From the NCBI GenBank assembly GCA_964464595.1, contig CAYXGW010000003.1, positions 20,964-84,963 on the forward strand: a stretch of 64,000 nt of DNA, read 5' to 3'. The position numbers and the translations under genes are program-made. Within the stretch, counting starts at the first letter, position 1. Each line of letters begins with the position of its first letter. The notes below the pieces were generated by a model, which made no database searches, was not told the DNA's origin, and saw only the letters and a list, made by a program, of their open reading frames with translations. The stretch is from an uncultured Deferribacteres bacterium (GTDB lineage Bacteria > Zhuqueibacterota > JdFR-76 > DREG01). Below are positions 1,425-45,794 of the stretch, one piece after another.

Positions 1425-2714
1425 CTAATTTACCCGCTCTTTAAGTTCTATATAAATTTGGGTTTTTAAATCTTCTACCCATTCTTGCATTTTTTTACTG
1501 CGTTTCTGGTTAAGTGCAAATTGCTCTAGTTGCTGCCAATCATCTTCTAAATTTAATCTACCGCCCTCACGTTTTTCATTTAAACGAATGATAAAATATC
1601 CAAATTCAGTCAAAAAAGGTTGGCTTACTCCTCCAATTTCAAGGCCATCTAGCGCTTTTTTGAATTCCGGTATTTGTAAGCCTTCAACCTCAAACCATCC
1701 AAGGTCGCCGCCATTATCTTTAGAAGTTGCATCATGGGAATGTTTCTTGGCCATTTTAATGAAATCGTCTTCTGTTTGAATACTATCCAAGATCGCAGTT
1801 AGAAATTCTCTCGTCTTCCCGGCGTCACTACTGCCCGCTTTTAATTGAATGAGTATATGGCGAACATTGATCCTCTCTCCTCTTTTCTCAATCAGCTTAA
1901 TAATATGAAATCCAAATTTTGTTTCAATTATATCTGAAATATCTCCAGGTTTTAACTTAAAGGCCGCTTCTTCAAATTCATGAACAAAGTCTCCTCGTTG
2001 AATCAACCCTAATTCTCCCCCGGCAGAAACCGAACCCGGGTCATCCGAATACTGCTTAGCCAGTGTAGTAAAATCTTCCCCGTTTACAATTCTTCTACGT
2101 ATATCTGAGATTTTGTTAAAGGCATCTTCTTTGCCCTTGCCACCTGCGCGAACTTCTCGCAGCAGTACTCGAATATGCACCATTTCTTGTATGTCCGGCA
2201 AACTGTCTTGCATTGTTCTAAAAAAAATCTCAACATCCTGTCTTGTTATTGTGATTTTTTGAGCAAACATTTGCTGCGTCCTTTCAACCATGAGGCGATT
2301 CTTAACATCCTCCTGGAATTGCCTTTTGATTTTTCCAATTGGCATATCAAAATATTCTTCTACCTTTGATTCTGAACCCAGTTGTTGGGTCCATTGTTGA
2401 ATCTGGTTGCTTAGGACTTCATCCACTTGCTGGTCTTCAACAATAACCGTGTCTTCTTTCGCTTTGGTTAATAATACCTTCTGTGTTATCAAATTTTCCA
2501 AAGTCCTTTTTCTAAGTTCATCAAACTTTTCTGTTTCTTTTTGAATGTCAATTTTTAATTGTAAGGCCAATTGAATGGTAAATTGGGTAAGTTCCGAATG
2601 CAGAATAATTTCATCGCCGACAATCGCTGCAATTCCATCTAAAAGTTTGTCCTGGGCGATTGAATGGTTTACGAAAAACGAAAACAAACATACAAATAGG
2701 GTAATACGTTTCAT
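1425..2714 (-). CDS. surA: Periplasmic chaperone and peptidyl-prolyl isomerase SurA-like (two parvulin domains)
   Basis: 429 aa with signal peptide MKRITLFVCLFSFFVNHSIAQ. Two PpiC-type parvulin domains (GGELGLIQRGDFVHEFEEAAFKLKPGDISDIIETKFGFHIIKL; GGDLGWFEVEGLQIPEFKKALDGLEIGGVSQPFLTEFGYFIIRL). N-terminal SurA-like chaperone region. Confidence 0.75.
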   Translation of the reverse strand: MKRITLFVCLFSFFVNHSIAQDKLLDGIAAIVGDEIILHSELTQFTIQLALQLKIDIQKETEKFDELRKRTLENLITQKVLLTKAKEDTVIVEDQQVDEVLSNQIQQWTQQLGSESKVEEYFDMPIGKIKRQFQEDVKNRLMVERTQQMFAQKITITRQDVEIFFRTMQDSLPDIQEMVHIRVLLREVRAGGKGKEDAFNKISDIRRRIVNGEDFTTLAKQYSDDPGSVSAGGELGLIQRGDFVHEFEEAAFKLKPGDISDIIETKFGFHIIKLIEKRGERINVRHILIQLKAGSSDAGKTREFLTAILDSIQTEDDFIKMAKKHSHDATSKDNGGDLGWFEVEGLQIPEFKKALDGLEIGGVSQPFLTEFGYFIIRLNEKREGGRLNLEDDWQQLEQFALNQKRSKKMQEWVEDLKTQIYIELKERVN

Positions 2715-3604
2715 AAAGATCCTTCAAGCTTTTTTATGGTTGTATCTGGTGCAATTTCTTTATCTAGTGTTGCCAGATTTAATTCAATTTTCTTGTTACT
2801 CTTAAGCGAAACCATTAGTTCCTTAAATCTTTCACGATACCTTTTTTCACGCAACCGCTGAATGATTTGATTTTTAACAAGTTCAATATCACGGAAACTA
2901 CCCGCCTTGTGTTTCTCAACCAATTGATACAAAATATGCCCCCCCTCTCCTGCAACTGGTCCAATAAAACTCCCGGTTTGTTGGCGAGCAATGTTTCTTT
3001 GTAGGGAAAAAATTACATTTTCAATTGGAATATAACCGCTGTCCCATTGATTATTGAAAATGTTTTCCGGATAGTTTTTCTGGATAACACTTTCAATCGT
3101 TTCTCCATTGTTTAGTGCAGCTTTAACCGTCTGTCCTGTCTGTCTGTCTTTACAAATCAAATAGTAATATCTAAATTCTGCATAATCTCTTTGAAAACCA
3201 GCTTGATTTTCTTGATAGTATTTAGCTATATCTTGTTCTGTAATTGCCTGTAAATTCGATATCTTGTCTTCGATATAGTAACTGATTACCAAGTCTCGCT
3301 TCAATTTTTGTAATTCATCCTGAATAAAGGGACGTTTATCAATTCCTTCAGATAGAGCTGATTGGTAAATTACTTCATTATCAATCCAGCGATAAACATA
3401 AGATTGCAAATAATCTGTGCTTATCAATTCTGAACTATTATTTCCCAGTTGATTCTTTATCTCTTTAAGTGTCAATGGCGTGTTTCCAACTTGAGCGACC
3501 GTCGGGCTTGTGTCGACAGGTTTTGTGCATTTCAAAAACAACAGACTCATTGAAATTACAAGTATTGATTTGAACTTATTAATAATACTATTATTCATTT
3601 TCAT
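2711..3604 (-). CDS. SurA/PpiD-like secreted protein with a degenerate parvulin-like domain
   Basis: 297 aa, signal peptide. C-terminal region GYIPIENVIFSLQRNIARQQTGSFIGPVAGEGGHILYQLVEKH resembles a parvulin fold but lacks the GG-LG motif. Overlaps the stop of the upstream paralog by 4 nt (coupled). Confidence 0.5.
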   Translation of the reverse strand: MKMNNSIINKFKSILVISMSLLFLKCTKPVDTSPTVAQVGNTPLTLKEIKNQLGNNSSELISTDYLQSYVYRWIDNEVIYQSALSEGIDKRPFIQDELQKLKRDLVISYYIEDKISNLQAITEQDIAKYYQENQAGFQRDYAEFRYYYLICKDRQTGQTVKAALNNGETIESVIQKNYPENIFNNQWDSGYIPIENVIFSLQRNIARQQTGSFIGPVAGEGGHILYQLVEKHKAGSFRDIELVKNQIIQRLREKRYRERFKELMVSLKSNKKIELNLATLDKEIAPDTTIKKLEGSL

Positions 3605-3612
3605 CTTTGTAC

Positions 3613-5385
3613 TTAATAATTCTGTGTTAGCGCACGTTCCAGTACTTTTTCATAGACACGTACACGAACGATATCATGTATCTTTTTTTCCCATTTTTCC
3701 TGGTTTATTTTTCGTAAATCTCTTACCACATCAGAACGCACCTTTGTTTTTATTTGTGAAAATGGTTGCATTTGTTCTTTTTCGTTGCTTAAAACCCTAA
3801 AAATTGAGTATCCATTATCCAATTTTAGCGGACCCGCAATTTTCCCCAGGCTTAATCCTATGGCCATTTTACCCAATTCTCCAAAACTATTTTCAGTAAG
3901 ATAACCAAGATTGCCTTTTTTGTTTTTAGACCTGGCCCTGGTATTATATTTTCCTGCCAATACGTCAAAATTATTTCCAGCCATTGCCAGTTGATAAATC
4001 ATTTGAGCTTCGGTAGAATCCTTAACAAAAATTTCTTGAACTTCCGCTTTTGCGGGAATTTTATATTTTTCCGGCTGATTATTGTAAAATTCTTCCGCCA
4101 TTTCATCCGTAATCGTTTGAATTTTATTAATATAATTATTCTGTAAATGTCTGGTTATAATTTGAGAAACCTGGCGATCCAATTGTCTTCGGTAATTTGG
4201 CATATCAAGGTAGCCACGACTGGTACCAATCTCCGAAGTTAAATCATATCTTATGTTGTCCTGTAAATATTTTGTCACCATTTCGACGGTACGTATCTCC
4301 CGGGGTCTTGGAGCACGTTGCTGTTTGTACATCAATTCAAAAAAATCGATCATTGTTTTTGTTTCGTTATCATATTGAGCAAGTGGAAGTAAACGCAATT
4401 CGTATGACACCCATGAATAATCCGGAGTTTCCACTCCATAGTTTTCCAGCAATAACGAATCATTGGGTGATGTTGAAATAAAAGTGAGCAATTTTTGAAT
4501 GTTATCATCAAAAAAAATAACATTATGTTTCCTGTCCAATTCTTGATTGAACTTTTCGAATTCCTCCATTACGCTTTTTCTTTTTCGATTAAACAGATTT
4601 CGCACAATAGCAGTTCTTTCAATCTCATATGGTTTTTGCAAAACCTGCCGCTTTTCGGTAACCTGAATAACATGAATACCCTTGGAAGTAATAATTGGTT
4701 TGGGATAGATTTGATATTTCCCGGATTTTAGCACTGCGGTCATAAATTCATTGTCCATGTAACCCCATTTCAAAAAACCGAGATCTCCCCCCTTTTTCGA
4801 AGTAAATTCATCCTTTGAATAGTTTCCGGCAAGTTCAGTAAAATCGCTACCTGATCGTAGCTGCCGTATAATTCCAGCTGCTTTTTGGATAACTTTTGTG
4901 AGAGAGTCAGAATCATCCTTTGGGGGTAGATCTAAAAGAATATGTCGAACCCTTACTTCTTTATCAGAGTAATCATAAAATTCCAGAATCTCTTTTTCTT
5001 TTATGATTTTGAACATAACAAACTGCTCCAATGCAGCTACGTATGCCGCCTGCAATCTCGCTTGCTCGACCCGATCTTTCACTTCCGGGAGTTTATCTAT
5101 ATCCATTTGTTTGGCAAACATTAGTTTCATTTTTCTATTGATCATTTTATTAAGAAACTTTTGCTTGTCATCTTGTGAAGCATTTTGAAGAGTTCGAATT
5201 GAATTTGCCTCCAGATATTCTCTTTCAAATTGATCAAGACTTATCAAAATATTCCCAGCCCTGGCTACAATTTGTGTTTTTTTCGAATTGCATCCGGAAA
5301 ACATTCCGATGAACACACTTAAAATGACCAACAATTTCCAATTCTTTTTCATACGACGATTGTATACAAAATTCCAATTATACAT
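3613..5385 (-). CDS. PpiC-type peptidyl-prolyl cis-trans isomerase, putative lipoprotein, two parvulin domains (PpiD/SurA-like)
   Basis: 590 aa. Candidate lipobox FSGC after MKKNWKLLVILSVFIGM (true start may be the internal Met). Parvulin motifs KKGGDLGFLKWGYMDNEFMTAVLKSG...GIHVIQV and KKGNLGYLTENSFGELGKMAIGLSLGKIAGPLKLDNGYSIFRV. Confidence 0.7.
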   Translation of the reverse strand: MYNWNFVYNRRMKKNWKLLVILSVFIGMFSGCNSKKTQIVARAGNILISLDQFEREYLEANSIRTLQNASQDDKQKFLNKMINRKMKLMFAKQMDIDKLPEVKDRVEQARLQAAYVAALEQFVMFKIIKEKEILEFYDYSDKEVRVRHILLDLPPKDDSDSLTKVIQKAAGIIRQLRSGSDFTELAGNYSKDEFTSKKGGDLGFLKWGYMDNEFMTAVLKSGKYQIYPKPIITSKGIHVIQVTEKRQVLQKPYEIERTAIVRNLFNRKRKSVMEEFEKFNQELDRKHNVIFFDDNIQKLLTFISTSPNDSLLLENYGVETPDYSWVSYELRLLPLAQYDNETKTMIDFFELMYKQQRAPRPREIRTVEMVTKYLQDNIRYDLTSEIGTSRGYLDMPNYRRQLDRQVSQIITRHLQNNYINKIQTITDEMAEEFYNNQPEKYKIPAKAEVQEIFVKDSTEAQMIYQLAMAGNNFDVLAGKYNTRARSKNKKGNLGYLTENSFGELGKMAIGLSLGKIAGPLKLDNGYSIFRVLSNEKEQMQPFSQIKTKVRSDVVRDLRKINQEKWEKKIHDIVRVRVYEKVLERALTQNY

Positions 5386-13908: not shown

Positions 13909-15711
13909 CTATCTTCTCTTTTTCTTGTTACGAACCGGTTTTTTCTCAACTGGTTTAAGTTGAATTGCGTCTGTTTTTACAAATTTCTGTTGCAGAATCG
14001 TAAGAAAATTAAACAGAGTATAGTATAAATTCAGCCCAGAAGGAAAGGTATTAAAAAGCAGCAAAAAGAAAACCGGCATAAAATACAGCATCATTTTTTG
14101 TCGAGGGTCTGACATAGTACTTTTTTGCTGTAAAAACATCGATAATGCCATCACAATCGGGAGTACGGTTACATGGTTCCCATAGATTGGCAGAGAAAAT
14201 GGTAGCATAAAAATAGTATCCGGTTTCGATAGGTCTGAAATCCACCAAATAAATTCCGCTCCTCGTAGTTCAATCGTCGATCGAAAAACAATAAATAAAC
14301 CAATCAAAAGCGGCATTTGAAGTAACATCGGCAGACAGCCTCCCAGGGGATTGACCCCGTGGTCTTTGTATAACTTCATCATTTCTTTATTTAACCGCTG
14401 GGAATCTCCCTTATACTTCTCTCTCAACTCAGTCATTAATGGCTGAACCAACTGCATCTTTTTCATCGAAGTATAGCTCTTGTGTGTTAACGGGTATAAA
14501 ATTATTTTTATCAAAATCGAAAAGATAATAATAACAATGCCATAGTTTGAAATATAATTATGTAAGAACTTTAGAGATTTTAAGATCAAAATACTGAAGG
14601 GTCTGAATAAACTTTCGTAAATTCCGGAATTCATAATTAACTCTTCAAGCTCAAAATTTACCGCTTTAAGTTTATTATATTCAATGGGACCCAAATATAA
14701 ACTGAAACTATTCAACTGATTGGTCCCTGCCGCAAAGGGCATATTTATGGCAAAATTGTAATGCGTGTATTCTTCCTCTGGTGTTAATGGAAATTGACTC
14801 CAATAACTGATGCTTCTTCCCTTGACATCAATTGGGGCTATAGCTGCACAAAAATATTTTGTTCTTAATGACGCCCAATGTACTGTTCCGGTTACTTCCT
14901 TTGTTTCGATTCCTCTTTCGTTGTCATCTATTTCAAAATCTTGTAAGTCATCTCCAAGGTAAGCATAAACTTTGTTCTTGTCTAAATCATCACGCAAAGG
15001 ATCTTCCGTCGGCAGCAAGCTGGAATCCCATCGCAAACGGTAGCTTTTATCGATAGCCAAATTGGCAAATCCTTCTAACTTTAACTCCAAATCAAAGTCA
15101 TATCGATTTCCATAAAAGGTGAATTTCTTTTCAATTGACTTTCCGTCGGGAAAATCCAGTCGATAACTGATACTAAATAGATCGTTTTCGTCTTCCAAAA
15201 AAACAGTTTGTCCCGTTCTTGGAGTATGTATAATCGATGAATACACATAGTTATCAAATTGTACTGACTCTTGACTTAGAATCATCCCAACACCCGGAAC
15301 TCCCACTTCTGTATTTGGAACAAGGTTTACATAATTGCTATCAGCATCAAAGTAAGTGTTTAATTTCCATTGGATAATTCCACCCCCCTTATTTGATATT
15401 TTTGCATCAAATAAATTGGAAACAATATTTATCACTTCCACCCGCTCTTCGGTTCCCAATGTTGAAAACTTATTTACAACTTCCTTGTCTAACGTTTCCC
15501 TTTCAGCTGGAGTTGTTATGCTTTGACTTTCTGTTAATGATTCCTCTGCTTCTTTTGCGGGACCGGGTCTTTCAATAATTTCTTCATCAAAGGAGGACTC
15601 TTCAGGAATGTTTTGGGGTACTGTGTAAACTATTCGTTTATACGTTTCTGTTTGCGTAAATATAATAATCAATCCAACCAGGACAATCGCAATAATCGTT
15701 TTCTTATCCAT
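13909..15711 (-). CDS. yidC: Membrane protein insertase YidC (long periplasmic-domain type)
   Basis: 600 aa. N-terminal TM, large periplasmic domain, C-terminal 5-TM core with conserved Oxa1/YidC motifs (GGCLPMLLQMP), basic C-tail KKPVRNKKKRR. Confidence 0.9.
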   Translation of the reverse strand: MDKKTIIAIVLVGLIIIFTQTETYKRIVYTVPQNIPEESSFDEEIIERPGPAKEAEESLTESQSITTPAERETLDKEVVNKFSTLGTEERVEVINIVSNLFDAKISNKGGGIIQWKLNTYFDADSNYVNLVPNTEVGVPGVGMILSQESVQFDNYVYSSIIHTPRTGQTVFLEDENDLFSISYRLDFPDGKSIEKKFTFYGNRYDFDLELKLEGFANLAIDKSYRLRWDSSLLPTEDPLRDDLDKNKVYAYLGDDLQDFEIDDNERGIETKEVTGTVHWASLRTKYFCAAIAPIDVKGRSISYWSQFPLTPEEEYTHYNFAINMPFAAGTNQLNSFSLYLGPIEYNKLKAVNFELEELIMNSGIYESLFRPFSILILKSLKFLHNYISNYGIVIIIFSILIKIILYPLTHKSYTSMKKMQLVQPLMTELREKYKGDSQRLNKEMMKLYKDHGVNPLGGCLPMLLQMPLLIGLFIVFRSTIELRGAEFIWWISDLSKPDTIFMLPFSLPIYGNHVTVLPIVMALSMFLQQKSTMSDPRQKMMLYFMPVFFLLLFNTFPSGLNLYYTLFNFLTILQQKFVKTDAIQLKPVEKKPVRNKKKRR

Positions 15712-16783: not shown

Positions 16784-18145
16784 ATGCCGGAAGTTTATGA
16801 AAGTATAGAAGAAACATGGAATAAATGTCTTGCTGAAATTGAAAAAAAGATACCTCCGCAAACATTTTCCACATGGTTTAAACCCATTGTTCCATTAAGA
16901 CTTCATGATTCAAAACTAATAATCCAGGTTCCAAGTCGATTTCACTACGAGTGGATTGAAGAACATTATAATGACCTCTTTAATAATGTATTTCTTGACG
17001 TATTTGGTTTTGTTCCATCAATAAACTATACCATTGCTTTAATGGAAAATTCATTTCCTGGTGTTAACAATTATCAGGAAAAACCAACGATCACAAACGG
17101 GTTGTCCATGCCGACAAACACACGGCTAAATGCACGTTATACATTTGATAATTTCGTAGAAGGAAATAGCAATCAATTTGCAAAAGCAGCTTCATTAGCT
17201 GTAGCCGAAGCTCCGGGAAAAACAACATTTAATCCTCTTTTAATTTATGGTGGTGTTGGGTTGGGAAAAACACACCTTACGCAGGCAATTGGTAACTTTG
17301 CTGTGGAGAATGGCAAAGCGCGTAAAATTCGATATATATCCAGTGAAAAATTTACCTTAGATTTTATTACTTCAATTCAAAATAATAGCACGACAAAATT
17401 TAGTAAACTATACAGAAATGTTGATCTGTTATTGGTTGATGATATACAATTTTTTACGAGTAAGGAAAGAACCCAGGAAGAATTTTTTCATACTTTTAAT
17501 GAGCTTCAGCAAAAAGGAAAACAAATCGTATTATCTTGTGATCGACCTCCCTCTGAACTTAAGGGACTGGAAGAAAGACTGATTTCTCGTTTTACATCTG
17601 GACTAATAGTAGACGTTCAAGTTCCTGATTTTGAAACCAGGATGGCTATTTTACAAAGAAAAGCGGAACAAGATAATATTGAAATAGATAATGATATTAT
17701 CGTATTTATAGCAACGAACATTACTTCAAATATCAGGGAGTTGGAAGGCGCCTTGATAAAGCTGCTTGCTCACGCATCACTCAATGATAAAGACTTTTCT
17801 TTAGATATAGCAAAACAAGTATTAAGAGATATTATTAAGAAAAAAAATACTCCTTTAACTATCGAAATGATTCAACGTGTTATTTCTGATTATTTTAGTA
17901 TTAAAGAAGATTTAATAAGAGCAAAAACCAGGAAAAAAGAGATTGTACTAGCAAGACAATTATCTATGTTTCTTTCTAAAGAATTAACAAATTATGCATT
18001 AAAAACTATCGGGTTGCATTTTGGCGGAAGGGATCATAGTACAGTAATCCATGCTTGCCAAAATATTGAAAAGAAAATAATAAATGATAAACAATTTTCA
18101 CAGGAAGTTGAAAAAGTAAAAAGAAAAATTGAATTATCTACTTAA
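16784..18145 (+). CDS. dnaA: Chromosomal replication initiator protein DnaA
   Basis: 453 aa. AAA+ motifs NPLLIYGGVGLGKTHL (Walker A), LLLVDDIQF (Walker B). C-terminal DnaA-box-binding domain (LSMFLSKELTNYALKTIGLHFGGRDHSTVIHACQ). Confidence 0.97.
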   Translation: MPEVYESIEETWNKCLAEIEKKIPPQTFSTWFKPIVPLRLHDSKLIIQVPSRFHYEWIEEHYNDLFNNVFLDVFGFVPSINYTIALMENSFPGVNNYQEKPTITNGLSMPTNTRLNARYTFDNFVEGNSNQFAKAASLAVAEAPGKTTFNPLLIYGGVGLGKTHLTQAIGNFAVENGKARKIRYISSEKFTLDFITSIQNNSTTKFSKLYRNVDLLLVDDIQFFTSKERTQEEFFHTFNELQQKGKQIVLSCDRPPSELKGLEERLISRFTSGLIVDVQVPDFETRMAILQRKAEQDNIEIDNDIIVFIATNITSNIRELEGALIKLLAHASLNDKDFSLDIAKQVLRDIIKKKNTPLTIEMIQRVISDYFSIKEDLIRAKTRKKEIVLARQLSMFLSKELTNYALKTIGLHFGGRDHSTVIHACQNIEKKIINDKQFSQEVEKVKRKIELST

Positions 18146-25884: not shown

Positions 25885-28563
25885 TTAAAATTGAAAGCCT
25901 AAATCAAAAGAAAATTCTTTTCTATTATTTGAATTTCCACCATAGCTGAAGGAAAAGACACCCAGTAGTGAATCGAAAGAAATTTTACCGCCAATTCCCG
26001 TTATAACGTCCTCGGCCACAATTTGATCCCTACTGTCATTCCATATTGCACCCAAATCGTATCGCAAAGAAAAATAAGTGTCAATCGGTATTTTACCAGG
26101 CATAAAATAGCGCAATTCCAAATTCGCTCGGATTAATCTCCGGCCGCGAACTTCATTTAGACGAAATCCATAAAATTGATCATTGTTTCCCATATCGAAA
26201 AATTCCGGGAAGGGTGTTGTATTCTCTGCGACGGCCCATACGATTTTTGGACTAATGGTCCATCGCCTTAAAAAACTATAGTAAGATTCGAACCGGGAAT
26301 AGAGTTTAAAAAACGATTTTCGATTACCAAAAAATTCAGGAGACATTTTATAATAAAATAGATTGTATCTCCCTTTTTTGGGAAAGGGCAATTTGTCAAG
26401 AGAGTCAACAATCCACTGTAACTTTAAACTAACCAGGTTGTCTTCGTACTCAGGAAAACCAAATCCAAACACAGGCTTAAACCGAATTTTTTCAACGTTG
26501 AATTCAGTTGACAAGAGGCCATCTCTCCTTAACTGTTTTCCAAATGAAGCACGAAGTCCGGTGTGTTGTTCTTTATATTCACCGGAAAGATTTCCTTGTG
26601 AAAAGGCATTCAACCGTTTTTGAAAATAATAATTATGGAATTGAAATGAAAAATCTGAGTTGAAGATTTGATCAAACTGAATTTCAATATCTCCGGAAAA
26701 ATACCTTTTTCCGGCAATACCTCCGATCTTAATTTGATTACCAAGTCCGAAAAGATTGTCATCGAGCCATTGAAAAAGAGATTGAAAACCGAAATCCTTA
26801 CTGAAATTATAACTCAAATTTACTAAAGTTGAGGGTCTTTCTCCAACGCGTAAATTTAGATAAAGTTTATCATTACGCCAGGTATATTCAGGTTGAACAC
26901 GATCAAAAAGTCCTAATCCGTAAAGATTTGCTACCCCATTAAGGGACAAAGAGTTACGAAAATAATCACCACTTTTCAAACCGTATTCCTTCAGAATAAT
27001 GGAAGAATGAGTTCTCTTGTTTCCGAACAAATCTACGGATTCGATTTTTCCTTCATCAATATAGATGGAAAGAATGCCCGAAGAATGGTAAAAAGTTTCC
27101 TTATAGATTCTGGCTAATGGAAAATCATTTTTTCGATAAAGTTTTAAAATATTTTCACGATCCAGCTGCCATGCGTGTATATTGAACGACTTACCCTTTT
27201 TGTTTCTCATTATCGAAGTGAGAAGACTATCTGACAGTTGCTGATTGTTGGTAAATGTTATTTTTTCCAAAATAGGATAAAATGTAACGAAGATTTCTAC
27301 GGCATTTGAATCTACTTCCACACCATATACGGAATTCACAAGACCGGAATTATATAGAGTTTGGAATGTATCTAAGATTTTGTTTTTTTCTACTGAGATC
27401 CCTACTTCTGGTAAAAAACCATTTTTCTGGAAATTGTGTCGGCCGTCAACAGTGATGTTGGCAATGTAATATTTTTTGTCCAGAAAATTTTCAGTTCTTA
27501 GGATGTTTTGAATCGCCTTTTTAATTATTCCGATAGATTTCCGGCATGCATCAATACCTGCTTGGTAAACAACTTCGAGACTATCGAAATCCGTATTGGT
27601 ACGATTCCTTAGATTAGGTGTTACCACGATATCCGATTCTTTTTTTGCTTTGTCTTTCTGGCTGACTTGCATTATGGTTGTTACCTGGTCGGCCAATTGC
27701 CAGGGTAAAAGAATTTCTTCTTTTGGTCGAAGAGGAGAAGTCGTATCGATAGAAATGATCAAATCGGGGTCAAAATCTTCTATTCCAGAAACGGGGATGT
27801 TTGCTAAAACGCCGCCATCCACAAGAAGGAAGGTATCTATCGAAACCGGAGAGAACAATAATGGAATAGCCGAACTTGCCAACATCACTTGGGCAAGATC
27901 TCCACGATCAAAAAAAACAATTTTTCCACGAATTAAATCAGTTGCGACAGAACGGAATGGTATTTTCAGGTTATCATAATTATTTGTCGCATGATATGGC
28001 GCATCGAGAACCAACTGGTAAAGTTGATTATACATTTTTTGGCCAGGAGAAATTGCCGGGGGTATATATGGCTTTGTACCCTTTAAACGAATTTGCAGCA
28101 AGTGACGGTTTTCGGATTGTTTTTTTGAGAAAAGTAGGCTTGTTCTCTGTGGTTTATCTTCGATGATTTCTTGCCAAAGAATACTGCTCAACTGTAGCCA
28201 AATTTCGTCAGCCGAGTACCCTGAAGCAAAGAGTCCTCCCACAATACTACCCATACTTGTTCCGGCAATATAATGAATCGTGATATTGTTTTCTTCAAGA
28301 ACTTTTAATATACCGATGTGAGCAATACCCCGTGCGCCCCCCCCGCTAAGAACCAACGCAACTGTTGGTTCTAAATTTCTATAACGAGGAAAAAGTAACT
28401 CCGTTTGCAAGATTTTAGAATTGGCAGGCAATAAAATTATATTGGATTGAAATGCAGCCACATCGGTGGTGTGAAAGAGAAAGATAATCCCTAAAAGTAT
28501 TAACCTAACCAAAAAACAAAGTTTCTGCTGGGCTAAAGGAAATATTTTGATTGTTGAAAGCAA
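25885..28563 (-). CDS. Patatin-like phospholipase fused to POTRA/Omp85 (bacterial surface antigen) outer-membrane barrel
   Basis: 892 aa. Signal peptide. Patatin motifs LVLSGGGARGIAHIGILKVLEE (oxyanion/Gly-rich) and GTSMGSIVGG (GxSxG nucleophile), DGG. Long C-terminal beta-strand-rich region ending in aromatic terminal residue (..LGFQF). Architecture as in PlpD-like type Vd proteins. Confidence 0.75.
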   Translation of the reverse strand: MLSTIKIFPLAQQKLCFLVRLILLGIIFLFHTTDVAAFQSNIILLPANSKILQTELLFPRYRNLEPTVALVLSGGGARGIAHIGILKVLEENNITIHYIAGTSMGSIVGGLFASGYSADEIWLQLSSILWQEIIEDKPQRTSLLFSKKQSENRHLLQIRLKGTKPYIPPAISPGQKMYNQLYQLVLDAPYHATNNYDNLKIPFRSVATDLIRGKIVFFDRGDLAQVMLASSAIPLLFSPVSIDTFLLVDGGVLANIPVSGIEDFDPDLIISIDTTSPLRPKEEILLPWQLADQVTTIMQVSQKDKAKKESDIVVTPNLRNRTNTDFDSLEVVYQAGIDACRKSIGIIKKAIQNILRTENFLDKKYYIANITVDGRHNFQKNGFLPEVGISVEKNKILDTFQTLYNSGLVNSVYGVEVDSNAVEIFVTFYPILEKITFTNNQQLSDSLLTSIMRNKKGKSFNIHAWQLDRENILKLYRKNDFPLARIYKETFYHSSGILSIYIDEGKIESVDLFGNKRTHSSIILKEYGLKSGDYFRNSLSLNGVANLYGLGLFDRVQPEYTWRNDKLYLNLRVGERPSTLVNLSYNFSKDFGFQSLFQWLDDNLFGLGNQIKIGGIAGKRYFSGDIEIQFDQIFNSDFSFQFHNYYFQKRLNAFSQGNLSGEYKEQHTGLRASFGKQLRRDGLLSTEFNVEKIRFKPVFGFGFPEYEDNLVSLKLQWIVDSLDKLPFPKKGRYNLFYYKMSPEFFGNRKSFFKLYSRFESYYSFLRRWTISPKIVWAVAENTTPFPEFFDMGNNDQFYGFRLNEVRGRRLIRANLELRYFMPGKIPIDTYFSLRYDLGAIWNDSRDQIVAEDVITGIGGKISFDSLLGVFSFSYGGNSNNRKEFSFDLGFQF

Positions 28564-39735: not shown

Positions 39736-41055
39736 ATGTCAGCAAAAAAAAGTGAAACGGTAATGGACAAATTGGTTTCGTTATGTAAAAGACGGGGATT
39801 TATTTTTCAATCAAGTGAAATTTATGGAGGTATTAACAGCTGTTGGGATTACGGCCCGATGGGCATAGAATTGAAAAAGAACATCAAAGAATTTTGGTGG
39901 AAAGCCATGGTTTCTTCCAGGCAAGATATTGAAGGATTGGATGCCAGCATTTTAATGCATCCTAAAATATGGGAGGCATCCGGACATCTTGATAGCTTTA
40001 CCGACCCTATGGTAGATTGCAAAAAGTGTAAAAAGCGTTTTCGAGAAGACCAGGTGGAAGGAGAAAAATGTCCGAACTGTGGTGGAGAACTGACGGATAC
40101 TCGCCAATTCAATTTGATGTTTAAAACAAATATTGGTCCCGTGGAAGATAGTTCAAGCATTATTTACCTGCGTCCGGAAACGGCCCAGGGGATATATGTT
40201 AATTTTGTGAATGTGCAAAAATCGTCCAGGCAAAAAATACCTTTCGGAATCGGCCAAATCGGCAAAGCCTTTCGCAATGAAATTACTCCGGGGAATTTCA
40301 TTTTTCGCACGCGTGAATTTGAACAAATGGAAATGCAATATTTTGTTAAACCGCAGGACGACCAGGACTGGATGGATTATTGGAAGAAGGAACGCATGGC
40401 CTGGTATGTAAGTTTGGGAATTACTGAAAGCAAATTGAGATTTCATGAACATGGTACAGACGAGCTTGCTCATTATGCCAAAGCGGCCTTTGATATCGAA
40501 TATGAATTCCCCTTCGGCTGGCAAGAGCTTGAGGGAATTCATAATCGAACAGATTTTGACTTAAAACAGCATATCGAATTTTCAGGGAAAGATTTGTCCT
40601 ATTTTAATGAAGCGACTCGTGACCGTTTTATTCCATTTATTATAGAAACTTCTGCAGGATGTGACCGAACATTACTGACAACACTTATCGATGCATACCG
40701 GGAAGAGGAAGTGAAGGGAGATAAGAGAGTTTTGCTGAAATTATCTCCTCACATTTCCCCAATAAAAGTAGGTGTTTTTCCCCTTGTTAAAAAAGACGGC
40801 ATGCCTGAAATAGCCCGAAAAATTACAGACTCATTAAGAAATCATACAACAGTTTTTTATGATGAATCAGGGGCGGTTGGCCGCAGATATAGACGGCAAG
40901 ATGAAATAGGAACTCCTTACTGTGTAACAGTTGACACGGAGTCTATTGAAAACCAAACAGTTACAGTTAGAGATCGGGATACGATGGTGCAAATAAGGGT
41001 AGATATTAATCAATTGAATGAGTTTTTTAAAGATAAATTATCCAAATTACAATAA
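39736..41055 (+). CDS. glyQS: Glycine--tRNA ligase (alpha2 dimeric GlyQS type)
   Basis: 439 aa. Class II aaRS motifs ([25 protein letters not shown] motif 2 region; [22 protein letters not shown] motif 3), C-terminal anticodon-binding domain. Confidence 0.9.
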
Positions 41056-41098
41056 AAAAAGCCTGACCCGATTTTCGAATCAGGCTTTTAATTTTTTC
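41054..41098. terminator. Bidirectional rho-independent terminator between the convergent glyQS and ORF 41108..42400
   Basis: Stem AAAGCCTGA(41058-41066)/TCAGGCTTT(41080-41088), 13-nt loop. Flanked by an A-run (41054-41060) upstream and TAATTTTTTCTTT downstream. Confidence 0.75.
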
Positions 41099-41107
41099 TT
41101 TAAAGGA

Positions 41108-42400
41108 TCATGAAATAATTCTTCGTTGAACTTTTTGTAAGTAGCTAGACGCTTTAGCGGATAGTCTGCTGGAGGGATATTTTTGTAAGAATTCTCCGAA
41201 TATCTGCGCAGCTTTGTTGTTTTCTCCAATGTTGTATAAGCATCGTCCTTCCATATACATTGCGTAATCTAATTTAAATGAGTTTTTATAAGCACTTACT
41301 TTTGTAAAAGACTTTAACGCCTCGCCATAATTTTTCAATGCGAAATAAGATTCGCCGATCCAATAAGCAAAGTTGCTAGCGAGTGCATGATTGGAATTTC
41401 TTTCCAGGAGATCGGACAAACCTATGATAACAGCATTGTAATTTCGATCGTTAAAATTTGCAAGAGCCACGTCATATTTTTGTTTTATTAGAGGTGTAGC
41501 AGATTTATTCAACTCAGTAGGTGAAGTTTGGACTATTAGAGTTTCTGGCTGTTTTAAAGGTTGTATTTCAGGTTTTGCTTCTGGAGAGGTGTCTCTTAAT
41601 TCAGCAATTTGGGTTTCCAATTTACTAATATTATTATCTTTATCGTTTATTATGGTAACAAGTTGGTTTATTCGATTTGTTTTTTGCGCAATTTCTGTTT
41701 CTAACTGGTCAATGAGAGACTGAAGTTTTATCATATCTTGATAAATATCGGTATTTTGAGGTTGTGATGTTGCTTCAGGTAAAACTGCGTCGGCAATCAC
41801 ATCAGAGGGCATAATTTCCTGTTTTTTCTCATATTTCTTTTTATTAAAATTAAAAGCCAGTCCAGTTTGAAAACTAATAAAACCATCGTTGAAAAAGCCG
41901 CCATCTATTCCGTTAACCATATCATTTTTTAAATACCGGAAATCACCGGAAATCAAAAGAGACAAACTAGGATTAACTGCAATATTCATTCCTAAACCAC
42001 CAATAAGGAGGCTTACAAATTTTGAATTATAATTATTCGGAGTTCCGACATTTTTGATATTCACTAGTCCTATTCCGGCTTGTAAAAATGGAAAAGTAGG
42101 CGAGTCTTTTAAAGCATAGCTACCTATCAACTCAATAGGAACCATGGCTGTTTTGAAAGTGCTTCCGTTAATTACAGCTTTCATCTCTCCATAACCTGTT
42201 TGAAATTTCATAGTAAGCCTAGGAGAAAACTGATAAAAAGTATAAGCTTCGAATTTTGGTCTTAAACCGGTATCAGTTATTGGTGAATCTCCAAACAAAA
42301 AATTCTGTCCAAGGTTCATACCAACACCTTTGTTTGATTGACCGTATAAATTTCCTACAACAACTAAAAATATGGTTGATATAAATGCTAACTTTCTCAT
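41108..42400 (-). CDS. Outer-membrane beta-barrel protein fused to a coiled-coil and C-terminal TPR (CpoB/YbgF-like) domain
   Basis: 430 aa. Signal peptide MRKLAFISTIFLVVVGNLYGQ. About 180 aa of alternating-hydrophobic beta-strand segments resembling OmpA-like/porin-like barrels (FEAYTFYQF, GLGMNIAVNPSLSLLISGDFRY). Heptad coiled coil (LQSLIDQLETEIAQKTNRINQLVTIINDKDNNISKLETQIAELR). TPR-like C-terminus (YDVALANFNDRNYNAVIIGLSDLLERNSN...YWIGESYFALKNYGEALKSFTKV). Confidence 0.5.
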   Translation of the reverse strand: MRKLAFISTIFLVVVGNLYGQSNKGVGMNLGQNFLFGDSPITDTGLRPKFEAYTFYQFSPRLTMKFQTGYGEMKAVINGSTFKTAMVPIELIGSYALKDSPTFPFLQAGIGLVNIKNVGTPNNYNSKFVSLLIGGLGMNIAVNPSLSLLISGDFRYLKNDMVNGIDGGFFNDGFISFQTGLAFNFNKKKYEKKQEIMPSDVIADAVLPEATSQPQNTDIYQDMIKLQSLIDQLETEIAQKTNRINQLVTIINDKDNNISKLETQIAELRDTSPEAKPEIQPLKQPETLIVQTSPTELNKSATPLIKQKYDVALANFNDRNYNAVIIGLSDLLERNSNHALASNFAYWIGESYFALKNYGEALKSFTKVSAYKNSFKLDYAMYMEGRCLYNIGENNKAAQIFGEFLQKYPSSRLSAKASSYLQKVQRRIIS

Positions 42401-42653
42401 ATTAACTCCTTAAAACTATTTGGTTGCATATTATTCATTTATTCTAGACCTTATCCCATTATGTCTGAACTGGTTACAACTTCTTACAATATGTGTACCA
42501 AAAACACTAGAATCAAGTAAAACGATTTATTTGGTTGGAATGTAGGTAGTTATATGAATTCACAAGTTAACATTTTCTTGAATTCTGTTTCATTATTTGT
42601 TACATAATAACACAACTGGATTTGTATAGTACAACAACACTAAGGAGAACGGC

Positions 42654-44042
42654 ATGAAATTTTTATTTTCATTTGTGTTACTAACCTCTTTAGGATGGCA
42701 CAGTTTAATTGAAGCTCAGGAAATCAAAGGCAATTTGGGATTTGGAGGGTATGCTTCTGGTGTGAAAATGATTTTGGGTGATGTAGACCATAGTACGATA
42801 GATCAATGGGGTGGTATATCAATTTCTTATGGAATATCTGAAAAATTATACCTTAAGTTTAATGGTGCATATGGTTGGGTTTATCCTCGCGATTCGAAGG
42901 GTTCTCAATTCGAGCCACAGGGTAGTTTTAAAACGTTACTTTATCCGGTAACATTAAGCATAGATTGGTTGCCAAATCCCAATAAAAGTTTCCGTCCTTT
43001 TCTTACATTTGGTGGTGGTATTTTGAATTGGGATGTTCGGGATATGAGAGGGACAGAATCTGTTTGGGATCAGGGTGAGAGCATTAATGGAAGCACAACG
43101 AATGTATCCGTTTTAGGTGGAGTCGGAGTTGAAAAAATTATATCAGCTGGAATTAGTACATCATTATTTGCCAGAATTCATTATTTACTAAAAGGTAATG
43201 AAGATACAATTGGAACGGGAGATGACAATCGAGCCGTTGCAGAAGTGGGAATAGGGCTTACGTTTTTTAATAATCCCAACCAGGATTCCGATGGAGATGG
43301 TGTTTTAGATCGGTGGGACCTTTGTATCGATGCGGCAGAAGATTATGATAACTACAAAGATTTAGATGGTTGTCCGGATTTAGATAATGATGAAGACGGA
43401 ATAATCGATAAAAGTGATAGTTGTCCGGACTTGCCTGAAGATTTGGATGGATTCCAAGACGAAGATGGTTGTCCTGACATCGACGATGATGGGGACGGAA
43501 TATCTGATCTTAGGGATAAATGCCCTAAAAGGGCGGAAGATATGGATAATTTTCAAGACGATGATGGTTGCCCGGATCCAGATAATGATGCGGATGGTAT
43601 CGAAGATGATATGGATAAATGTCCAAACGAAGCAGAGAATAGGAATGGATTTGAAGATGGTGATGGTTGTCCTGAAGAAAAACCTGAAATTTTGATCAAA
43701 GAAACGCCAATTATTCTAAAGGGTGTTAATTTTGAAAGTGGAAGTTCCCGGCTTACATCTGCTTCATTCAGCGCTCTTGATAGGGTTTTTCAAACTCTTA
43801 CAGATCATCAGGATATTAGGATCGAAATCCGTGGTTACACAGATAGCTCGGGTGAATGGACTGCCAATCTAAAACTTTCACAGCTAAGAGCAGATGTTAT
43901 AAAACTTTATTTTATTAAAAAGGGAATTGTAGCGGAAAGGGTGAGAGCAGTTGGGTATGGAGAATCAAATCCAATTGCTTCAAATATGTTTCCTGAAGGC
44001 AGGGCAGACAACAGAAGAATTGAATTTGCCCAAATGAAATGA
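42654..44042 (+). CDS. OmpA-family outer membrane protein with thrombospondin type 3 (TSP3) calcium-binding repeats (Pal/OmpA-like)
   Basis: 462 aa. Signal peptide. N-terminal beta-barrel. About 9 Asp-rich TSP3 repeats (DSDGDGVLD, DLDGCPD, DEDGCPD, DDDGDGISD...). C-terminal OmpA_C peptidoglycan-binding domain (IRIEIRGYTDSSG...NLKLSQLRADVIKLYFIKKGI...GYGESNPIASN...NRRIEF). Confidence 0.85.
   Translation: MKFLFSFVLLTSLGWHSLIEAQEIKGNLGFGGYASGVKMILGDVDHSTIDQWGGISISYGISEKLYLKFNGAYGWVYPRDSKGSQFEPQGSFKTLLYPVTLSIDWLPNPNKSFRPFLTFGGGILNWDVRDMRGTESVWDQGESINGSTTNVSVLGGVGVEKIISAGISTSLFARIHYLLKGNEDTIGTGDDNRAVAEVGIGLTFFNNPNQDSDGDGVLDRWDLCIDAAEDYDNYKDLDGCPDLDNDEDGIIDKSDSCPDLPEDLDGFQDEDGCPDIDDDGDGISDLRDKCPKRAEDMDNFQDDDGCPDPDNDADGIEDDMDKCPNEAENRNGFEDGDGCPEEKPEILIKETPIILKGVNFESGSSRLTSASFSALDRVFQTLTDHQDIRIEIRGYTDSSGEWTANLKLSQLRADVIKLYFIKKGIVAERVRAVGYGESNPIASNMFPEGRADNRRIEFAQMK
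43284..43680 (+). repeat. In-frame tandem coding repeats encoding TSP3 Asp-rich calcium-binding motifs
   Basis: Recurrent GATGGTTGTCC[T/G]GA and GATGA[T/C]GATGG units within ORF 42654..44042. They also generate the spurious overlapping +2-frame ORF 43414..43695. Confidence 0.7.
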
Positions 44043-44216
44043 GTTAAATTTGTTTGGCCAGCGAGTAATTCAGCGCAATTTAAATTCTCTTACTACTAGA
44101 ATATCAAATAAATAGCAATAAACGGTAGAAACGGTCTTTCCTTTTTAGCTAAAACATCCTTAAAAAAGGAGGGACGTTTTGATCTTGAGGGATGGGGTTG
44201 TAGGAAGTACATTGCC

Positions 44217-44245
44217 TTGACATTTCGTCAATTCTTTCATATCAT
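44217..44245 (+). promoter_or_regulatory. Sigma70-type promoter upstream of the pcd-lat operon
   Basis: TTGACA (44217-44222), 17-nt spacer, TATCAT (44240-44245), about 60 nt upstream of ATG 44307. Lies in a 264-bp leader. Confidence 0.5.
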
Positions 44246-44306
44246 TTGTGATTATATATTTTATTGATAATATTGTGTTGCAATATTTGTAATAAGGTGA
44301 GAATAA

Positions 44307-45794
44307 ATGAATAAACGGTTCAAAAATTTTATTGACGGTGAGTGGGTGGACTCCTGTTCAGGGGAAACTTTTGAAAACAGAAATCCGGCTAATTGGGATG
44401 AAGTAGTCGGTGTTTTTCCTAATTCAAATGAAGAGGATGTTAATAAAGCGGTTAAGGCTGCAAAGAAAGCTTTTGATAGTTGGCGGTTAGTGCCCGCTCC
44501 CGAAAGAGGGGAGATCATGAAAAAAGCCGGCGATATTATGTCTGCCAGAAAGGAAGAGATTTCCAGGCTAATGACTCGTGAGATGGGAAAAATATTGGCC
44601 GAAACCAGAGGAGATACACAAGAGGGAATAGACACAGCTTATTATGCCTTTGGTGAAAGTCGACGTTTGTTTGGCCACACAGTTCCATCAGAGTTACCCA
44701 ATAAATTTAATATGACTACCCGGATCCCAATTGGCGTGGCAGGGATCATTTCACCCTGGAATTTTCCTATGGCAATACCAACGTGGAAAATTTTTCCTGC
44801 ATTAACTTGTGGGAATACGGTTGTTTTTAAACCGGCTTCAGATACGCCAGCAACAGCGACTCTTTTTGTTGAGATTCTGGTAGACGCGGGAGTTCCTCCT
44901 CATGCTCTCAATTTAGTGCATGGAACCGGATCACAAGTTGGCAATCCCATTGTGAATCATCCCGATATTAATTTGATTTCTTTTACCGGTTCAACAAAAG
45001 TTGGGAAATCCATAAATCAACATGCCGGCTCTCAATTAAAACGCGTTTCACTGGAATTGGGTGGAAAAAATGGTCAAATTGTTATGGCAGATGCCAATCA
45101 GGAATTAGCTCTTGAAGGTGTTTTGTGGGGAGCATTTGGAACAACCGGACAACGTTGTACTGCCACAAGTAGACTAATTCTGGATGAGAAAATTCACGAT
45201 GAGTTTCTAGAGATGCTTGTAAAGTGTACAAATAACCTAGAGCTTGGCGATGGCCTTGATGAGTTTGTCGAAGTAGGTCCTCTTATCAATCAATCTCAGG
45301 TTGAAATTATTAGTGAGTATGTTGAAATTGGAAAAAACGAAGGTGCCAAATTGCTTTGCGGAGGAGAATCAGCAAATCATGGAAGTTTAGCAAGTGGATG
45401 GTTCTACAAACCGACAATATTTTCAGATGTTTCCAGGGAAATGAGAATAGCCAAGGAAGAAATCTTTGGGCCAGTTTTATCTGTTATAAAAGTTTCATCG
45501 CTCGATGAAGGTGTTGATGTTCTGAATGATTCGACATATGGTCTTTCTTCTTCGGTTTATACAAAAGACATAAATTCAGCATACAAAGCGATGAGAGACA
45601 TAGAAGCCGGAATTACGTACATTAATGGCCCTACGATTGGTGCGGAATGCCACATGCCTTTCGGCGGTGTAAAGGCAACAGGCAATGGCCACAGAGAAGG
45701 CGGCTGGCAGGTTTACGAATTTTTTTCAGAAGTAAAAACATGTTATGTGGACTTCAGCAATAAATTGCAAAGAGCCCAAATTGATAATCGATAA
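44307..45794 (+). CDS. pcd: Aldehyde dehydrogenase, antiquitin (ALDH7)-like; probable piperideine-6-carboxylate / alpha-aminoadipic semialdehyde dehydrogenase
   Basis: 495 aa. ALDH motifs (ELGGKNG; catalytic Cys region FGTTGQRCTATSRLIL close to the ALDH7A1 GTAGQRCTT.RRL pattern; EEIFGPV). Immediately upstream of lysine 6-aminotransferase. Confidence 0.7.
   Translation: MNKRFKNFIDGEWVDSCSGETFENRNPANWDEVVGVFPNSNEEDVNKAVKAAKKAFDSWRLVPAPERGEIMKKAGDIMSARKEEISRLMTREMGKILAETRGDTQEGIDTAYYAFGESRRLFGHTVPSELPNKFNMTTRIPIGVAGIISPWNFPMAIPTWKIFPALTCGNTVVFKPASDTPATATLFVEILVDAGVPPHALNLVHGTGSQVGNPIVNHPDINLISFTGSTKVGKSINQHAGSQLKRVSLELGGKNGQIVMADANQELALEGVLWGAFGTTGQRCTATSRLILDEKIHDEFLEMLVKCTNNLELGDGLDEFVEVGPLINQSQVEIISEYVEIGKNEGAKLLCGGESANHGSLASGWFYKPTIFSDVSREMRIAKEEIFGPVLSVIKVSSLDEGVDVLNDSTYGLSSSVYTKDINSAYKAMRDIEAGITYINGPTIGAECHMPFGGVKATGNGHREGGWQVYEFFSEVKTCYVDFSNKLQRAQIDNR

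Follow-up and report, generated by a model that had tools for sequence, protein, structure and literature searches.

We analyzed a 64,000-nucleotide stretch of DNA from an uncultured Deferribacteres bacterium (contig CAYXGW010000003.1 of assembly GCA_964464595.1; hereafter the window) and focused on an open reading frame (ORF) of the minus strand, at positions 41108..42400, that starts with ATG and runs uninterrupted for 430 amino acids (aa). Comparison of its sequence and predicted structure with those of known envelope proteins indicates that the product is probably a periplasmic adaptor of the CpoB/YbgF type, for which an N-terminal eight-stranded, OmpA-like beta-barrel would serve as a permanent anchor in the outer membrane (OM). 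It represents a new anchoring variant of the CpoB/YbgF-like proteins. The family to which it belongs, in which a barrel is followed by a coiled coil and a tetratricopeptide repeat (TPR) domain, is uncharacterized, yet it is found widely in KSB1 and Calditrichota as well as in uncultured phyla related to them; the target is thus not a one-off.

A sequence-only reading of the window had proposed that the N-terminal domain is an OM beta-barrel preceded by a signal peptide, and structure modeling agrees with this. The target was modeled with AlphaFold2 from an alignment with 8 homologs and then from one with 74, and the layout was identical in both; the model from the 74-sequence alignment has a mean predicted local distance difference test (pLDDT) score of 86.5. 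Residues 1 to 20 (42341..42400, minus strand; MRKLAFISTIFLVVVGNLYG, followed by Q) form a predicted Sec/signal peptidase I (SPase I) signal peptide, modeled as a helix from residue 2 to 16, which ends in NLYG before the glutamine and lacks a lipobox cysteine. The segment from residue 21 to 185 (41846..42340, minus strand) is modeled as an eight-stranded OmpA-like barrel with strands between residues 24 and 184. DSSP assigns eight long barrel strands to the model, with pLDDT values of 90 to 98, the loops are short and long in alternation, and hydrophobicity alternates along several of the strands. The final strand terminates in GLAFNF, an aromatic ending of the kind expected of a BAM substrate.

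When the N-terminal domain was compared with the PDB using Foldseek, we recovered the transmembrane (TM) domain of OmpA (E value, 3-4e-10), NspA (TMt, 0.68), and the N-terminal barrel of OprF (0.66), with further matches to OmpW, OmpX, and Ail, at a match probability of 1.0; the best matches were all eight-stranded OM barrels. The Pfam family PF13505 (OMP_b-brl) is matched by 59 of the 74 aligned family members (best E value, 1.3e-12), while the window protein, checked alone against Pfam, gave no barrel match (none to PF13505 at an E value of ≤0.01). As modeled, the N-terminal domain is an OM-type eight-stranded barrel for which OM insertion is predicted. Because an even number of strands puts both barrel ends on one side, the coiled coil and TPR part would be periplasmic, the location that is predicted from the N-terminal Sec signal peptide and the eight-stranded barrel topology. 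The target is like the OmpA/OprF/NspA-type barrels (PF13505) in fold, strand number, signal peptide, and aromatic end of the last strand, and it shares with OmpA the presence of a periplasmic C-terminal extension. What the barrel of the target carries on its periplasmic side, however, is a coiled coil followed by a TPR domain, whereas OmpA carries the peptidoglycan (PG)-binding OmpA_C domain there.

The C-terminal part had been described as a coiled coil plus a CpoB/YbgF-like TPR module, and this is supported by profile, structure, and heptad analyses. The TPR domain covers residues 299 to 430 (41111..41506, minus strand) and consists of three TPRs and a capping helix, modeled as seven helices between residues 299 and 429. 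TIGR02795 (tol_pal_ybgF) matches the target with 60.4 bits (E value, 2.5e-16; curated cutoff, 90.1 bits) over 114 of the 119 profile positions, and the CpoB model PRK10803 aligns collinearly with residues 216 to 418, that is, from the coiled coil onward. Both models match all 74 family members, with best E values of 8e-28 and 4e-20, respectively. In a search of the PDB with the family profile, the best natural sequences were YbgF (2xev; 4.6e-21) and Escherichia coli CpoB (6g5s; 7.4e-21), and BamD was weaker (6e-17 to 6.5e-16). Similarly, Foldseek placed the TPR domain of Xanthomonas campestris YbgF (2xev) ahead of BamD for the C-terminal domain, with a TMt of 0.92, a root mean square deviation of 1.2 Å, and 27% identity. 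Judged by sequence and by the fold of the model, the closest relatives of this domain are YbgF/CpoB, and the domains are homologous, a conclusion that does not extend to equivalog status.

The barrel and the TPR domain are connected by a coiled coil flanked by two linkers with predicted disorder. Linker 1 (residues 186 to 218; 41747..41845, minus strand) is rich in K, E, and P, and its pLDDT falls below 50 at residues 192 to 216; linker 2 (residues 272 to 298; 41507..41587, minus strand) is rich in P, E, and Q, with a pLDDT below 50 at residues 275 to 296. Conservation is low in linker 1 and both linkers are nearly unconserved, linker 2 being the least conserved segment of the protein (4 to 48% identity). 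Between them, residues 219 to 271 (41588..41746, minus strand) are modeled as a single helix with a pLDDT of about 90. This 53-residue, approximately 8-nm coiled coil has no break and keeps a perfect register through 7.5 heptads, with M,I,I,I,I,I,I at the a positions and I,L,L,K,L,K,L,L at the d positions. Like CpoB/YbgF, the Tol-Pal-associated cell division coordinator, the target would be secreted and carries its coiled coil N-terminal to a three-TPR domain; it differs by the additional 165-aa integral OM barrel ahead of the coiled coil.

The fusion is genuine and not an artifact of assembly or frameshift, since homologs that are 29 to 83% identical and about 50 independent genome loci keep the domain order. 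Indeed, the order is unchanged and all domains are retained in the full-length homologs. Although a word-indexed search returned only about 9 full-length relatives, when 1.84 billion representatives were searched exhaustively with a profile, there were 43,706 matches at an E value of ≤1e-3 and 1,365 at ≤1e-30. Among the top 150 representatives of 50%-identity clusters, about 85 were single-stretch full-length matches of 385 to 510 aa. With domain hidden Markov models (HMMs) made from the first family alignment, we found a barrel followed by a TPR domain in 100 retrieved sequences (mostly top-150 cluster representatives), and 79 of these also had a coiled-coil match and ordinary signal peptides. 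A GTDB genome scan gave 80 loci, 42 of them with a fused ORF; together with 9 loci fetched earlier, this makes 51 fused loci in a compared set of 89 related loci (numbered with the prefix L below). With these numbers, the architecture cannot be called rare.

The fused loci stem from metagenome-assembled genomes labeled KSB1, Calditrichota, Zhuqueibacter, Neomarinimicrobiota, "Deferribacteres," "Cytophagia," or unclassified. Two fused paralogs occur in several assemblies, and several contain a fused and a short form (see below) together. The fusion is neither annotated nor described: an 82%-identical protein is labeled [quoted passage not shown] a 44%-identical relative bears the IMG label "TolA-binding protein," and no account of a barrel-fused CpoB turned up when the literature was searched.

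In 38 loci, we found the coiled coil-TPR protein alone, as a short form of 230 to 340 aa. A cysteine directly follows an uncharged hydrophobic region (h-region) of the signal sequence in 33 of the 36 complete short homologs versus 1 of the 47 complete fused ones, and in this sole exception the cysteine lies inside the h-region. Since the short forms are so largely lipoprotein-like, the barrel looks, from these sequence features, like an alternative and immobile OM anchor for the coiled coil-TPR module. The premise that CpoB is soluble is valid in Proteobacteria only; elsewhere it is mostly a lipoprotein of the OM, as reported for 82% of the nonproteobacterial CpoB proteins (PMC12204202), and recent work argues that CpoB began as an OM lipoprotein. 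An OM anchor is therefore to be expected, and it is the type of anchor alone that makes the target unusual. The coiled coil-TPR module is common to the target, to these lipoproteins, and to the short forms of KSB1 and Calditrichota, which come from the same phyla as the target and are presumably also anchored in the OM by their N terminus; the lipoproteins are held by an acylated cysteine, in contrast to the beta-barrel of the target. Neither a barrel-fused form nor any of the phyla considered here is contained in PMC12204202.

In a neighbor-joining tree of the TPR domain, the fused forms mostly grouped together (45 fused and 5 "short" entries, several of the latter being contig-end fragments or a frameshifted gene), and the short forms fell into separate clades; the tree has no bootstrap and is indicative only. 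In one clade of seven loci (L058, L061, L065, L069, L080, L083, and L086), the short form immediately follows PBP2 (mrdA) and RodA (mrdB) and not tol-pal genes, a context that hints that the wider family is connected with PG synthesis. A second group of short forms is sited between RecN and DnaE. At L052, L058, and L065, RodA and the short gene are separated by a gene for a barrel protein of about 400 aa, which shares the strand of the short gene and precedes it by 17 to 44 bp, and the encoded barrel is homologous to that of the target (HMM E values of 1e-12 to 6e-19). An adjacent barrel gene of this kind may have been the source of the barrel in the fusion.

The three barrel proteins (L058:8454-9671, L065:8577-9722, and L052:124-1326) have a composition of their own, with a signal peptide, a PF13505 barrel, a TSP3-like acidic motif, and an unassigned domain of about 150 aa. 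They end in a hydrophobic helix terminating in RKQK/E, and such a TM-like helix is odd on a barrel protein.

Several observations weigh against a CpoB-like identity of the target. Its YbgF score stays below the curated cutoff (60 versus 90 bits), and its CpoB score is 36 bits, compared to a curated cutoff of 383 bits. Unlike the TPR domain, the coiled coil has no detectable homology to that of CpoB. PF16331 (TolA_bind_tri) is absent among the 25 best of the 32 Pfam matches of the target (E value, ≤1) as well as among the 25 families matched by most of the 74 members, and in the PDB profile search the coiled coil matched no chain of the YbgF N-terminal domain (the trimerizing coiled coil; PDB 2xdj). 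Classical rules for Ile at a and Leu at d favor dimers and not CpoB-like trimers, although the heptad composition of the target is not decisive for its oligomeric state. The genomic context does not help either. CpoB is encoded with tol-pal genes (tolQRAB-pal-cpoB), whereas the target is flanked by a glycyl-tRNA synthetase (GlyRS) and an OmpA-type gene; neither tolQRAB nor pal is found among the annotated ORFs of the window, and in none of the 89 related loci did we find a neighboring OmpA_C gene of the Pal type. Near the cpoB-like loci, a search for Pal, OmpA_C, and Tol proteins gave only the OmpA-TSP3 genes of the window clade and one MotB-like protein. The neighbors of the fused family are not envelope specific. 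Finally, membrane insertion, oligomeric state, and partners are all predictions.

The OmpA-type gene lies divergently from the target, on the plus strand (42654..44042). It encodes a 462-aa protein with a signal peptide, a barrel at about residues 32 to 209, TSP3 repeats, and an OmpA_C domain at residues 346 to 462. Pfam matches to OmpA (E value, 7.9e-20) and to TSP_3 in four stretches confirm the OmpA-family neighbor with TSP3 repeats that had been read from the sequence. Its barrel is homologous to that of the target, as it was matched by the barrel HMM of the target family (E value, 1e-13; residues 32 to 209) and by pairwise BLASTP (E value, 2e-4). The proposal that it is a Pal analog has to be abandoned, because it has an SPase I signal (IEA before Q) without a lipobox cysteine and a barrel of its own. 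Pal is a lipoprotein of about 170 aa with an OmpA_C domain, and the neighbor reaches only 53 bits with TIGR02802, against a cutoff of 125. Its predicted features are those of an OmpA-type tether.

In both proteins, a glutamine directly follows the predicted signal peptide (LYG before Q in the target, 42338-42343; IEA before Q in the neighbor, 42714-42719), and [ASG]Q is found shortly after the h-region in 60 of the 74 family members by a crude regular expression. This pattern resembles the "Q-rule" of Bacteroidetes, which does not cover the whole FCB group (PMC5837995).

The two start codons are separated by an intergenic region of 253 bp (42401..42653, to which no strand is assigned). This spacer was correctly delimited by the sequence-only reading, but its designation as a shared divergent promoter was not upheld: in 40900-44400 we counted 15 sigma-70-like matches versus 12.7 ± 3.2 in shuffled sequences, that is, no excess, and we therefore consider it only as an intergenic region. 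A Shine-Dalgarno sequence (GGAG) is located 6 nucleotides 5' of the target ATG. On the other side of the gene, a hairpin terminator found on the minus strand (41057-41089; 15-bp stem plus T-run) separates the target from the convergent GlyRS gene, and because of this strong terminator the target is apparently monocistronic. An Rfam scan of the window gave no match.

Could the two divergent genes form a dedicated tethering unit, in which the TPR module docks on or regulates a PG-bound OmpA-TSP3 partner, as in a Pal/CpoB-like pair? The genes are divergent neighbors only 253 bp apart, and their barrels are homologous. The OmpA-TSP3 gene adjoins the target in five genomes of one clade (the window, L002, L004, L010, and L011), although the target is only 36% identical in L010 and 32% in L011, and L011 retains both genes together with the downstream GlyRS-RecO-MgtE genes while those upstream of the OmpA gene differ. 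Nevertheless, the adjacency carries little information, because in L002, L004, and L010 the whole block of about 20 kb is syntenic with the window; it most simply reflects inherited synteny. The target is the gene of lowest or near-lowest identity, and so the fastest or nearly the fastest to diverge, in each syntenic block (window versus L002, L004, L010, L011, and L008), with 36% compared to a block median of 58% in L010. Outside these genomes the arrangement is lost: at L008 and L009 (44% identity), the gene directly upstream is an aminotransferase, with neither Aldedh nor OmpA present at this position, and no OmpA_C gene was found near L005, L006, L007, and about 40 more distant fused loci. 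The idea of a co-conserved pair is thus only weakly supported, with nothing that goes beyond inherited synteny, and the picture of a compact, lineage-specific pair fails on two counts, as the fused form is widespread and the OmpA-TSP3 gene adjoins it in a single clade only. Since the neighbor, not being a lipoprotein, is also not Pal-like, we consider a dedicated pair unlikely.

Three further explanations concern the target itself, and we regard each of them as less probable still. A BamD-like accessory of OM protein (OMP) biogenesis, with a barrel in place of the lipid anchor, is suggested by matches of PF13525 (YfiO) to 72 of the 74 members and of TIGR03302 to all 74, and by the recovery of BamD in both the Foldseek and the PDB sequence searches. 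However, TIGR03302 gives the target only 34 bits (cutoff, 81.4), and YbgF/CpoB performs better in every test (60 versus 34 bits, 5e-21 versus 6e-17, and TMt values of 0.92 versus 0.44 to 0.56). The target has three TPRs where BamD has five, lacks a lipobox, and contains a coiled coil that is absent from BamD, which makes this reading quite improbable. We give even less credit to an accessory of the type IX secretion system (T9SS) that would combine a PorG-like eight-stranded barrel with a PorW/PorE-like TPR module. Weak NCBIfam matches to T9SS_PorG in 44 of the 74 members and to PorW/SprE in 57, and a FlgD_ig/T9SS-type protein 2 to 4 genes upstream in eight fused loci, point in this direction, but such matches are expected of any small barrel or TPR; the window protein matches neither the PorG nor the PorW/SprE model at an E value of ≤1e-3, and no core T9SS genes are adjacent in the window. 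The T9SS protein PorE, a CpoB-TolB-Pal fusion lipoprotein according to PMC12204202, resembles the target in that a CpoB-like TPR is fused to envelope modules and anchored in the OM, and both come from the FCB group. PorE, however, is a lipoprotein containing a beta-propeller, a carboxypeptidase-like domain, and OmpA_C, whereas the target has neither a propeller nor a PG-binding domain and uses a barrel as its anchor. The CHU_0125 model is weakly matched by 23 of the 74 members. The last explanation, that a sequencing frameshift joined a barrel gene to a lipoprotein cpoB-like gene, draws on the tandem, same-strand arrangement at L052, L058, and L065; an uninterrupted ORF without internal signal peptide or lipobox, present in single-ORF form in about 50 independent assemblies and many 50%-identity clusters, makes it extremely improbable. 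We rejected a frameshift or misassembly on the basis of the conserved continuous ORF.

The CpoB/YbgF-like adaptor anchored by a barrel thus remains the reading that we favor, and a possible mode of action can be derived from E. coli CpoB, which links OM constriction to PG synthesis, binds TolA, and modulates PBP1B-LpoB. The barrel would insert into the OM and fix the protein there, and the coiled coil would oligomerize it, as in E. coli CpoB. The flexible linkers, of which the first is about 30 residues long, would suspend the TPR module from the OM across the PG layer, where it may bind a TolA-like transducer and/or a PG synthase. Such binding would couple the behavior of the OM to cell wall growth or constriction. 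Both candidate partners, a TolA-like transducer and a PG synthase, correspond to those of E. coli CpoB (PMC4458516).

The remaining genes give little indication of a partner. The commonest neighbor of the fused gene, present in 20 of the 51 loci, encodes a conserved protein of about 175 aa that lacks a signal peptide and matches no Pfam family. It lies immediately upstream on the same strand (L017:9184-9834, L024:9372-9911, and 18 others) and is absent at the window locus. The other neighbors, such as Der GTPase, an alcohol dehydrogenase, a response regulator, and TatC, are not informative in this respect. The window itself covers the region of the chromosomal replication origin: between 13909 and 25789, it encodes YidC (13909-15711, minus strand), DnaA (16784-18145), DnaN, RecF, GyrB, and GyrA, the cumulative GC skew has its minimum at about 16 to 18 kb, and an AT-rich stretch (27% GC) is found at 18 to 20 kb. 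Two other envelope-related loci were noticed. The minus-strand gene at 25885-28563 encodes an 892-aa protein with a patatin phospholipase, POTRA, and Omp85 barrel architecture like that of PlpD. Next to Mfd, a minus-strand run at 1425-5385 looks periplasmic chaperone-like, with a 429-aa protein containing SurA_N and two peptidyl-prolyl isomerase (PPIase) domains, a 297-aa ORF without Pfam match, and a 590-aa multi-PPIase protein.

Going further, one might speculate that barrel-anchored CpoB proteins constitute a distinct and ancient class of immobile adaptors that reach through the PG on coiled-coil and linker stalks and control PG synthases of the inner membrane, in an Lpo-like manner, or a TolA/TonB-like transducer, in organisms in which cpoB-like genes are uncoupled from tol-pal. 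We consider this more specific proposal rather doubtful at present. If it were true, TolB, Pal, and CpoB would all have relatives fused to an OMP barrel, which would bear on the origin of the Tol-Pal system.

Overall, the barrel would add a third solution to the two by which the CpoB module is deployed, soluble or lipid anchored. It would render a CpoB-like protein essentially immobile, the reverse of the direction that PMC12204202 proposes for Proteobacteria, and the predicted product is a fixed counterpart of a protein for which mobility is considered important. For annotation, "tetratricopeptide repeat protein" could be replaced by "OMP-barrel-anchored CpoB-like protein." Envelope coordination in uncultured FCB-related phyla, in which cpoB-like genes lie outside tol-pal operons and some are next to PBP2-RodA, could also be approached through this family.

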